Positions 4,408 through 21,719 of a stretch of 27,700 bases of DNA are shown piece by piece. The stretch covers positions 1 through 27,700 of IMG/VR virus record IMGVR_UViG_3300030012_002303. The stretch is one strand, 5' to 3'. Numbering within the stretch: position 1 is the stretch's first letter; every line of letters begins with the position of its first letter. Origin of the DNA: a virus (Duplodnaviria > Caudoviricetes). Made by a program: the position numbers and the translations under genes. The notes under the pieces were generated by a model. That model was given only the letters and a program-made list of their open reading frames with translations. It did not search any database and had not been told where the DNA came from.

Positions 4408-4424
4408 AGAGTTTCTCCCGTACT

Positions 4425-4455
4425 GGGCCAGCGCAAGCTGGCCCGGTTTCGTTTT
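4425..4455 (+). terminator. Intrinsic terminator with GNRA loop
   Basis: GGGCCAGC-GCAA-GCTGGCCC followed by GGTTTCGTTTT. Confidence 0.8.
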
Positions 4456-20575: not shown

Positions 20576-20785
20576 ATGTTTACAGCAATCTTAGTAGCCT
20601 GTCATGCCTACACAAACGTAGGTTGTTTTATGCTTACTGATGACAGGGGTCCATACAAAACTATGGAACAGTGTGAAGAACGCATCGATGAGATGTTAGC
20701 CAACACGATAAAGGTGTGGCTTGATCACAAAGCACCGTTAGTTGTAACAGGATGGAACTGTAAAAGAGATGTATCAGAAACCTAA
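20576..20785 (+). CDS. Small protein with hydrophobic N-terminus and several Cys
   Basis: GGAG RBS; MFTAILVAC... Confidence 0.6.
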   Translation: MFTAILVACHAYTNVGCFMLTDDRGPYKTMEQCEERIDEMLANTIKVWLDHKAPLVVTGWNCKRDVSET

Positions 20786-20951
20786 GTGCTGGTCATGTGG
20801 ACATGACCTAATATGGGGCGGTGATCATGACAGTGAAGATGCAGATGGCAGAGAATATATTGAATCAAACCTGTCCTGCCCTAACTGTGATGCGTTTTAT
20901 CTGTACTTTCAGCCCCTAGATTGCGATTCTGAGCGACCTGAAGGTAGTTAG
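20769..20951 (+). CDS. Small zinc-ribbon protein
   Basis: CWSCG-x-LIWGGDHD...NLSCPNC. Confidence 0.7.
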   Translation: MYQKPKCWSCGHDLIWGGDHDSEDADGREYIESNLSCPNCDAFYLYFQPLDCDSERPEGS

Positions 20952-20957
20952 ACACGG

Positions 20958-21134
20958 CTATCGTTGCTGAAGGCCCTGAGAATCGATGTTTTTATTTAGT
21001 AAAAACAAACACATAGAAAAAGGAAGGGACTTGCCCTTCCTTGTGTAAGACCCCTTACCTTTGCGGGGCTTGACTATTTTGAGCCTGAATCGTCGTAGTT
21101 TCAGGCTTCTTGCGACTGGGTTTTTGGTTCGCAT
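20958..21134 (-). CDS. arfA: ArfA-like alternative ribosome rescue factor (58 aa, not in ORF track)
   Basis: AAGGAG RBS; MRTKNPVARSLKLRRFRLKIVKPRKGKGSYTRKGKSLPFSMCLFLLNKNIDSQGLQQR. Compare E. coli ArfA ...[21 protein letters not shown]. Confidence 0.8.
   Translation of the reverse strand: MRTKNPVARSLKLRRFRLKIVKPRKGKGSYTRKGKSLPFSMCLFLLNKNIDSQGLQQR
21015..21042 (-). terminator. Intrinsic terminator inside the arfA-like ORF (end of late operon)
   Basis: Minus strand AAGGAAGGG-CAAGT-CCCTTCCTT-TTTCT. Confidence 0.75.
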
Positions 21135-21268
21135 GCTACTTCTCCTTGACAGCAGTCATCGATTATCTGACCACATGTAACACATTGTTCGTGTCCGTGT
21201 ACATAAACTGTCTTGAGATTGCCCTGACACCGTGGGCAGCGGGGTGAGCAGTGTTCCTTACTCTCCAT
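21101..21268 (-). CDS. Small Cys-rich zinc-ribbon protein (55 aa, not in ORF track)
   Basis: MESKEHCSPRCPRCQGNLKTVYVHGHEQCVTCGQIIDDCCQGEVACEPKTQSQEA; overlaps the lysozyme stop and the arfA start. Confidence 0.7.
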   Translation of the reverse strand: MESKEHCSPRCPRCQGNLKTVYVHGHEQCVTCGQIIDDCCQGEVACEPKTQSQEA

Positions 21269-21719
21269 CTGCCAGTGCCCTCATGCGTGATACCAAACGA
21301 CGTGCGCGATTTGGCACCTGCGTATACCACTTCGAGTCGACCATCTGATCGGCTGCTTCATTGAAGTCTCGTGCGTCTACCCCTGCCTTCATTCCGACAA
21401 ACTTTGACAAGCGGGGATGCCCCAGGTTGAACATCATGTTTGCAATGATAAGCTGACATTCTTCTGGTAGGTCGTTCCAGTCTGGGTACAGGCGGTGACA
21501 GTCCTCAAGTGTAACAGCGATGTCCAATTTAAACACGTTGTCCACACGTTCCTGTTCAATGACTGTACCAACAGGTTTGCCGTACTCAGGGTCGTCTTTC
21601 TTAATGAGGTGACCAATTCCAAAAGTTGGTAAATTTAGGTGGTCCAAATATATTTCGTACTTGCAGCCCTCGTCGGAGGCAAGCTCCTGACGTAGCTGAT
21701 CTATGGTTGTTGATTTCAT
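21258..21719 (-). CDS. T4-like phage lysozyme (GH24 muramidase)
   Basis: Catalytic E-x8-D-x5-T in DEGCKYEIYLDHLNLPTFGIGH; NMMFNLG; SKWYTQVPNRA. Confidence 0.9.
   Translation of the reverse strand: MKSTTIDQLRQELASDEGCKYEIYLDHLNLPTFGIGHLIKKDDPEYGKPVGTVIEQERVDNVFKLDIAVTLEDCHRLYPDWNDLPEECQLIIANMMFNLGHPRLSKFVGMKAGVDARDFNEAADQMVDSKWYTQVPNRARRLVSRMRALADGE

Follow-up and report, generated by a model that had tools for sequence, protein, structure and literature searches.

Whether a phage-borne arfA gene can end its own transcript ahead of its own stop codon is the question raised by this locus. The non-stop mechanism itself is textbook knowledge in bacteria: truncation of the arfA mRNA and tagging of its product are described for Escherichia coli (PMC3989581), and the cutting of brfA by an internal intrinsic terminator has been shown by mutation (PMC6881298). 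Annotations of arfA in phages have already been published; a search of the open-access literature returned no report of the non-stop layout in a phage arfA. We consider it moderately probable that a terminator in the arfA gene studied here gives a non-stop mRNA and, from it, a tmRNA-gated 40-residue peptide that recruits RF2. The sequence-level basis for this reading consists of membership in the ArfA family, a hairpin with a U-tract before the stop codon, the recurrence of this layout among unrelated phages and bacteria, and a tail that varies freely.

The window (the whole stretch of DNA that was analysed) is a 27.7-kb phage fragment with 46% G+C, in which Pfam and PHROG matches include a terminase, an SNF2 helicase, a UvrD helicase, a primase and a DNA polymerase A. 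The nearest cultured relatives of this polymerase are 023Pt_psg01, DSL-LC04, HTVC023P and HTVC027P (46-52% identity; 50% for HTVC023P and 46% for HTVC027P, both in the top four), and the window is, on the polymerase match, probably from an HTVC023P-like marine phage. Phages of the HTVC023P type are described as highly abundant in the sea, with hosts that may span several taxa, and pelagiphages as having 30-35% G+C (bioRxiv 10.1101/2019.12.14.876532); given the 46% of the window, its host is probably not SAR11. A minus-strand block, ordered as an ORF of 546+ aa, a 1444-aa virion protein, a lysozyme, a 55-aa cysteine-rich ORF and arfA, meets a plus-strand replication block at about 20951-21015. 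The features of this junction are as follows:

21258..21719, minus strand: phage lysozyme (PF00959; PHROG endolysin), upstream of arfA in the same gene block
21101..21268, minus strand: 55-aa cysteine-rich ORF, overlapping the start of arfA by 34 nt
21142..21147, minus strand: Shine-Dalgarno-like AAGGAG, 7 nt 5' of the arfA ATG and within the upstream gene
21134-20958, minus strand: arfA-family ORF of 58 aa, with its TAG at 20960-20958
21042-21020, minus strand: terminator-like stem-loop, AAGGAAGGG-CAAGT-CCCTTCCTT, with a 5-nt loop
21014..21021, minus strand: U-rich tract, UUUUUCUA
20926..21005, no strand assigned: conserved intergenic element with inverted half-sites, the source of the arfA read-through tail and outside arfA proper
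20769..20951, plus strand: 60-aa cysteine-rich ORF, the end gene of the convergent replication block

The Shine-Dalgarno place is occupied by AGGAG or GGGAG in each of the 16 clade sequences long enough to include it. The 55-aa cysteine-rich ORF, which is also found 5' of ArfA fusions in related phages, had no Pfam or PHROG match, and its nearest Atlas clusters are unnamed. No promoter is claimed for arfA because promoter-like sites in the window are at chance level (16 against 14.6 expected). Rfam and ARAGORN gave no match in the window, ARAGORN found neither tRNA nor tmRNA in relative G004, which is 89% complete, and three related records gave no match to a T7-type RNA polymerase in a search whose control likewise matched nothing.

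By its sequence, the window gene is a member of the ArfA family. The protein matches Pfam PF03889 at 30.1 bits (cut-off 25.5) over residues 16-35, its sole PDB sequence matches are E. coli ArfA chains (E 0.005-0.013), and its nearest Atlas clusters are all ArfA; no NCBIfam model matched it. The Atlas also contains the identical 40-aa sequence, an entry that carries no information on expression. Alignment with a 72-aa Escherichia ArfA (L412) is gapless with an offset of nine, so that the predicted non-stop product, residues 1-40, is equivalent to Escherichia residues 10-49 (end at about 48-49). In common with ArfA (YhdL, PF03889) of E. coli and other beta- and gamma-proteobacteria, the window gene has the channel-binding tail KGKGSYxRKGK, a short helix and an in-frame hairpin before the stop, and it keeps N14, L20, F25, R26 and K34-K44 except M40 (K25-K35 in the window); positions 27-30 read LKIV against QRVE in Escherichia. 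It differs in an N-terminus shorter by the nine residues 1-9, in Arg for A18, in KS for the KH motif, in the absence of the hydrophobic C-terminus, in having a short stem-loop with a U-tract where E. coli arfA has a long RNase III stem, and in its location on a phage, where it closes a lysis block. According to the account of E. coli ArfA in PMC8012679, F25 and residues 27-30 recruit RF2, A18 and the N-terminus activate it, A18T abolishes this activation, and a 40-residue form is inactive; in the window protein the basic KGKGSYxRK segment goes past E. coli residue 40. Since the missing features (A18, the N-terminus and KH) are E. coli-type, they lower the case for an E. coli-type ArfA and not the case for a protein that works like ArfA, and rescue activity of the window peptide is plausible, not assured. 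A low-confidence model of the 40-aa form (pLDDT 72, pTM 0.28) places helix at 6-11 and 14-16, which may correspond to the range of the ArfA helix 15-24 (PMC8012679); Foldseek of this model against the PDB gave no match, a result made uninformative by the model's low confidence.

The first-pass annotation of this DNA had placed a hairpin and U-tract within the arfA frame ahead of its stop, and these are present at 21042-21020, beginning with base 3 of codon T31 and finishing on base 1 of codon F39. It had further described nine base pairs plus a U-tract about 19 codons before the stop. The stem proves to be a core of seven pairs, to which two basal A-U pairs are added that belong to the U-run itself; a 7-bp core with a 5-U tract thus replaces nine pairs with a separate tract. 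The last G-C pair, at 21022, is followed by five U and then CUA, and the transcript would be expected to end at about 21016-21014, after codon 39-40 and 18 codons short of the stop. Folded over 37 nt the hairpin reaches -13.5 kcal/mol (z -2.85, matched by 1 of 200 shuffles), and over 56 nt its z is -1.72 (15 of 200 shuffles), so that on its own it is moderately above chance. It is the sole terminator-like site on the minus strand from 27700 to 20312 in a first scan and from 27700 to 20266 in a stricter one; read on the plus strand, the same stem has no good U-tract and is absent from both scans. The window arfA has in this respect the layout of the non-stop-regulated rescue genes arfA and brfA, which carry a terminator or RNase III hairpin in frame before the stop.

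RNA evidence consists of assembled contigs from five metatranscriptome runs, which are sparse and unstranded and cannot show a 3' end; with this sparse cover, no shared ends were seen. One contig (record 3 of X1, 20980-21241, depth 3) passes the hairpin by 40 nt, but a contig reveals neither strand nor DNA carry-over, and it weighs neither for nor against termination at the site. A single low-depth contig (record 19 of X3) skips window positions 21008-21117 and has 11 other letters instead, and probably represents a relative with the cysteine-rich ORF but without arfA and the hairpin.

Among close relatives, the hairpin is kept in 17 of 17 distinct clade sequences, with changes limited to the loop or to C-to-U in the 3' arm. 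Residues 1-40 of arfA are 85-100% identical within the clade, and the frames run to 56, 58, 72, 88 or 114 aa, one running off its contig. The read-through tail does begin hydrophobic, as had been noted (FSMCLFLL, mean Kyte-Doolittle 2.6), but its final 12 residues are hydrophilic (-1.9). A hydrophobic C-terminal degron was ruled out as an explanation of the tail, given its hydrophilic end, its variability and its origin in intergenic DNA: the tail DNA is the intergenic element, which was found downstream of arfA at 13 loci and with no arfA ahead of it at 9 others (a count that leaves out L246, a partial match on a contig with arfA).

The element lies at or near the convergence zone of relatives with and without arfA. 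Its half-sites, at 20926-20983, have a fixed spacing of 48 nt with GANTC in each. A covarying RNA was ruled out for this palindrome (0 of 6 pairs covary), and from its sequence it looks like a candidate paired protein-binding site, such as an origin, packaging or promoter element. GANTC is linked to the alphaproteobacterial CcrM/GcrA.

A survey of viral homologues pooled motif and profile scans with eight loci from phage records, and its figures hold among the matches listed; one motif pattern favours Arg-Lys-Gly, and the shares are not unbiased. Its 216 distinct sequences form 105 clusters at 75% identity over 33 residues. (The single short protein as query returned 6 close relatives; a profile, with E up to 0.001, yielded 975 representatives that came without context.) Among these matches, a terminator-like site precedes the stop in 16 of the 105 clusters and follows an early stop in 2, long fusions account for 12 clusters and intermediate forms for 8, and the remaining 67 stop within 24 codons and have no hairpin. 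The background of the terminator rule is 31 of 3000 random windows (~1%), which gives a binomial p of 2e-14 for the pre-stop sites if the clusters are taken as independent. In a separate metagenome set, pre-stop sites occur in 6 of 29 clusters and a post-stop site in 1 of 29.

Among the matches listed, the U-tract of the 16 terminator-type clusters begins 41-57 nt from the motif (a narrow spread partly imposed by the search range) and 5-202 nt from the stop. Counted from the first Lys, the predicted non-stop products of these listed matches reach 15-21 residues and real early stops fall at a median of 17, while the terminator-type frames run on for 18-79. By a crude automatic scoring of the same listed matches, the next gene is convergent in 8 and same-strand in 5 of the 16 terminator-type clusters, against 4 convergent and 33 same-strand among 67 early-stop ones. 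The last position in a block best suits a gene that truncates its own transcript.

Homologues that stop before the hairpin had been named by the first-pass annotation as evidence against its reading, and this expectation was half borne out: 69 of the 105 clusters among the matches listed do stop early, but since 67 of these 69 lack any hairpin, they point to two designs within the ArfA family and not to a failure of the idea. The non-stop design is dispensable for the family, however, given these early stops and those of the 22 SAR11 copies described below. Covariation of the hairpin across phage homologues had also been proposed as a check. In 14 phage-type hairpins, picked for having the hairpin in a common register, 96% of cells are paired and both partners have changed in five of the nine pairs, an outcome reached by 0 of 500 shuffles, with lower values in slid-register controls; the window's shorter register is not common to all 23 rows, over which it is 63.8% paired against 62.4% when shuffled.

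The layout extends to bacteria. In a motif scan that covered about 121 of 430 stretches of species genomes, pre-stop hairpins occur among the matches listed in Rheinheimera, Alishewanella, Shewanella, Zooshikella and others, and the Rheinheimera and Alishewanella hairpins begin at the same RKG codons as that of the window. B. subtilis BrfA (YqkK) is like the window gene in its in-frame intrinsic terminator, and is described as having a non-stop mRNA and a tmRNA-gated product (PMC6881298); by description it is set apart from the window gene by a distinct sequence with its own N-terminal helices, a chromosomal location and an active form of about 62 aa. Of 401 alphaproteobacterial genomes, 10 have a match to the ArfA family; Table 1 of PMC11633108 lists arfA in 0 of 2,376. 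The short genes of SAR11 and other Alphaproteobacteria, for which no functional study was found, have the same short N-terminus of the NPxA...L...F type as the window gene, and three chromosomal ones (L659, L663 and L667) have a long hairpin and U-run before the stop, L663 and L667 sitting among housekeeping-type genes. Two of these three adjoin an MscS channel gene. At L660, the sequence about 30-80 nt past the arfA-like stop presumably resembles a TPP riboswitch motif. A chromosomal short ArfA-like gene is present at L379, L380, L382 and 19 more Pelagibacteraceae loci. In SAR11 (23 loci, one too short), 22 of the 22 copies examined stop early, 10-17 codons from the motif, without a hairpin.

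Short ArfA proteins like that of the window also occur in cultured marine phages, with an internal hairpin in RXM g10. This hairpin (-21.7 kcal/mol) lies over the same codons well ahead of the stop, and was counted negative by the terminator rule owing to its weak U-run. HTVC027P gp30 stops 13 codons from the start of the motif, overlaps the small terminase gene and has no such hairpin. Both are annotated as ArfA, in PMC8953757 for RXM g10 and in PMC12753301 for gp30, where the latter is reported as expressed early and late; both annotations are given without mention of non-stop regulation. In Caulobacter phage Cr30, an unannotated arfA-like gene with an early stop (L057:1201-1302) lies between two annotated genes; its host is reported to be without ArfA (PMC11633108).

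In other phages the ArfA domain is fused in frame to the basic domain phrog_17747 (L037:2438-2788, L028:2378-2794, L024 and L025), and the L037 fusion is preceded by the same cysteine-rich ORF as the window arfA. DUF5872 was rejected as a label for the fused domain, as there was no such Pfam match. Fusions L037, L158 and L028 carry a similar hairpin midway in a conserved continuation of 76-77 codons; because the hairpin sits inside this continuation, read-through must occur in them, and fusions with a hairpin at the junction could yield both a non-stop ArfA and the full fusion. The U-tract is better in the window clade than in the fusions.

Since arfA is the last gene of its block, the hairpin would also end the lysozyme transcript, and within the window it closes the final 6.6 kb of genes on that strand. 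The further claim that it terminates the whole structural and lysis transcript was overstated: in relative G004 (89% complete) the long block of genes on one strand contains further terminator-like sites, of which the strongest (-16.3) follows a 304-aa ORF, and most close relatives lack arfA as well as the hairpin. On sequence grounds, the hairpin would end the final late genes, which need not amount to one whole transcript. Among the 80 best lysozyme relatives, arfA lies within 500 nt in 1, and a terminator-like site lies within 450 nt in 11, including the arfA-bearing one; in many more distant relatives the lysozyme gene is mid-block. The 13 next-closest relatives after L299 and L300 (L301-L313) adjoin the convergent block without arfA and without such a hairpin. 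Because these arfA-less relatives also lack the hairpin, it came with arfA, gene and hairpin travelling together.

We hypothesize that arfA is an accessory phage gene in which the hairpin stands where stop-bearing family members end. RNA polymerase would stop inside arfA, at about 21015, the ribosome would stall at the end of the non-stop mRNA, and tmRNA-SmpB would tag the 40-aa product, which would be degraded. Once tagging falls short, or host tmRNA is saturated, untagged peptide would be released, its KGKGSYxRK tail would bind the empty mRNA channel, and host RF2 would be recruited. The earlier claim that the phage keeps the bacterial feedback circuit, with a non-stop mRNA and a tmRNA-gated peptide of about 40 aa, is, as a prediction, well supported by comparison.

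A rival account, which we regard as unlikely, is that a plain terminator at a convergent junction lies over the Lys and Arg codons of arfA, the stop having been lost without selection and tagging being a side effect. The window arfA does face the replication block, the crude scoring among the matches listed gives the same preference (convergent in 8 of 16 terminator-type against 4 of 67 early-stop genes), and several stems are flanked by A-runs, as two-way terminators are. However, where a relative lacks arfA the corresponding junction carries no such terminator, the ordinary order of stop then terminator occurs in just 2 of the 105 clusters among the matches listed, the hairpins of RXM g10, L075 and L155 have a same-strand gene behind them, and on the plus strand the window's stem lacks a good U-tract. 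The absence of an N-terminal segment whose ordering accompanies RF2 opening, the Arg at A18 and the missing KH would agree with another possibility, that the non-stop design is real but the peptide plugs the mRNA channel and competes with SmpB-tmRNA, thereby sparing phage proteins or parking ribosomes. Arg or Lys stands at the A18 place in 8 of 14 terminator-type clusters, and the ArfA domain is also fused to the basic phrog_17747. Against such a plug, F25 and R26 are kept and the strand pattern of 27-30 for RF2 recruitment probably is, BrfA activates RF2 through a different N-terminus (PMC8012679), and tmRNA gating would be most sensible for a back-up rescue factor; we hold it to be about as improbable as the junction terminator.

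Rather improbable, too, is a terminator that is weak or masked by ribosomes, giving the 58-aa protein, or a gene that is a clipped remnant of an ArfA-phrog_17747 fusion with an inherited hairpin. Fusions that follow the same cysteine-rich ORF have a comparable hairpin that must be read through, the U-tract has only five U, and one RNA-library contig spans the site. Yet the tail is unconstrained (frames of 56-114 aa) in a clade whose residues 1-40 are 85-100% identical, the U-tract of the window clade is better than that of the fusions, and in-frame terminators work in E. coli and B. subtilis (PMC3989581, PMC6881298).

If the non-stop reading is correct, a lytic phage would read the tmRNA capacity of its host by a bacterial feedback trick, which would give phages a route to protect translation under stress or defence, and ArfA-type rescue would extend to a short form in marine phages, SAR11 and scattered Alphaproteobacteria. 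Tentatively, a wider picture may be drawn, in which stop and terminator have been swapped at the same codon, giving constitutive mid-operon copies and tmRNA-gated terminal ones. The end of the lysis transcript would then be a sensor that releases an RF2-recruiting factor only when trans-translation is overwhelmed, as might happen when defence nucleases cut mRNA or tRNA, and the 40-aa form would be the missing alphaproteobacterial ArfA. The cultured pair of RXM g10, with its internal hairpin, and HTVC027P gp30, with its early stop, leaves the question open to direct test.

Elsewhere in the window, a strong G+C hairpin (4421-4446, plus strand, -22.8 kcal/mol) with a U-tract lies just 5' of a GP88-like gene, and relative G004 has a hairpin of -38.6 in a similar place.
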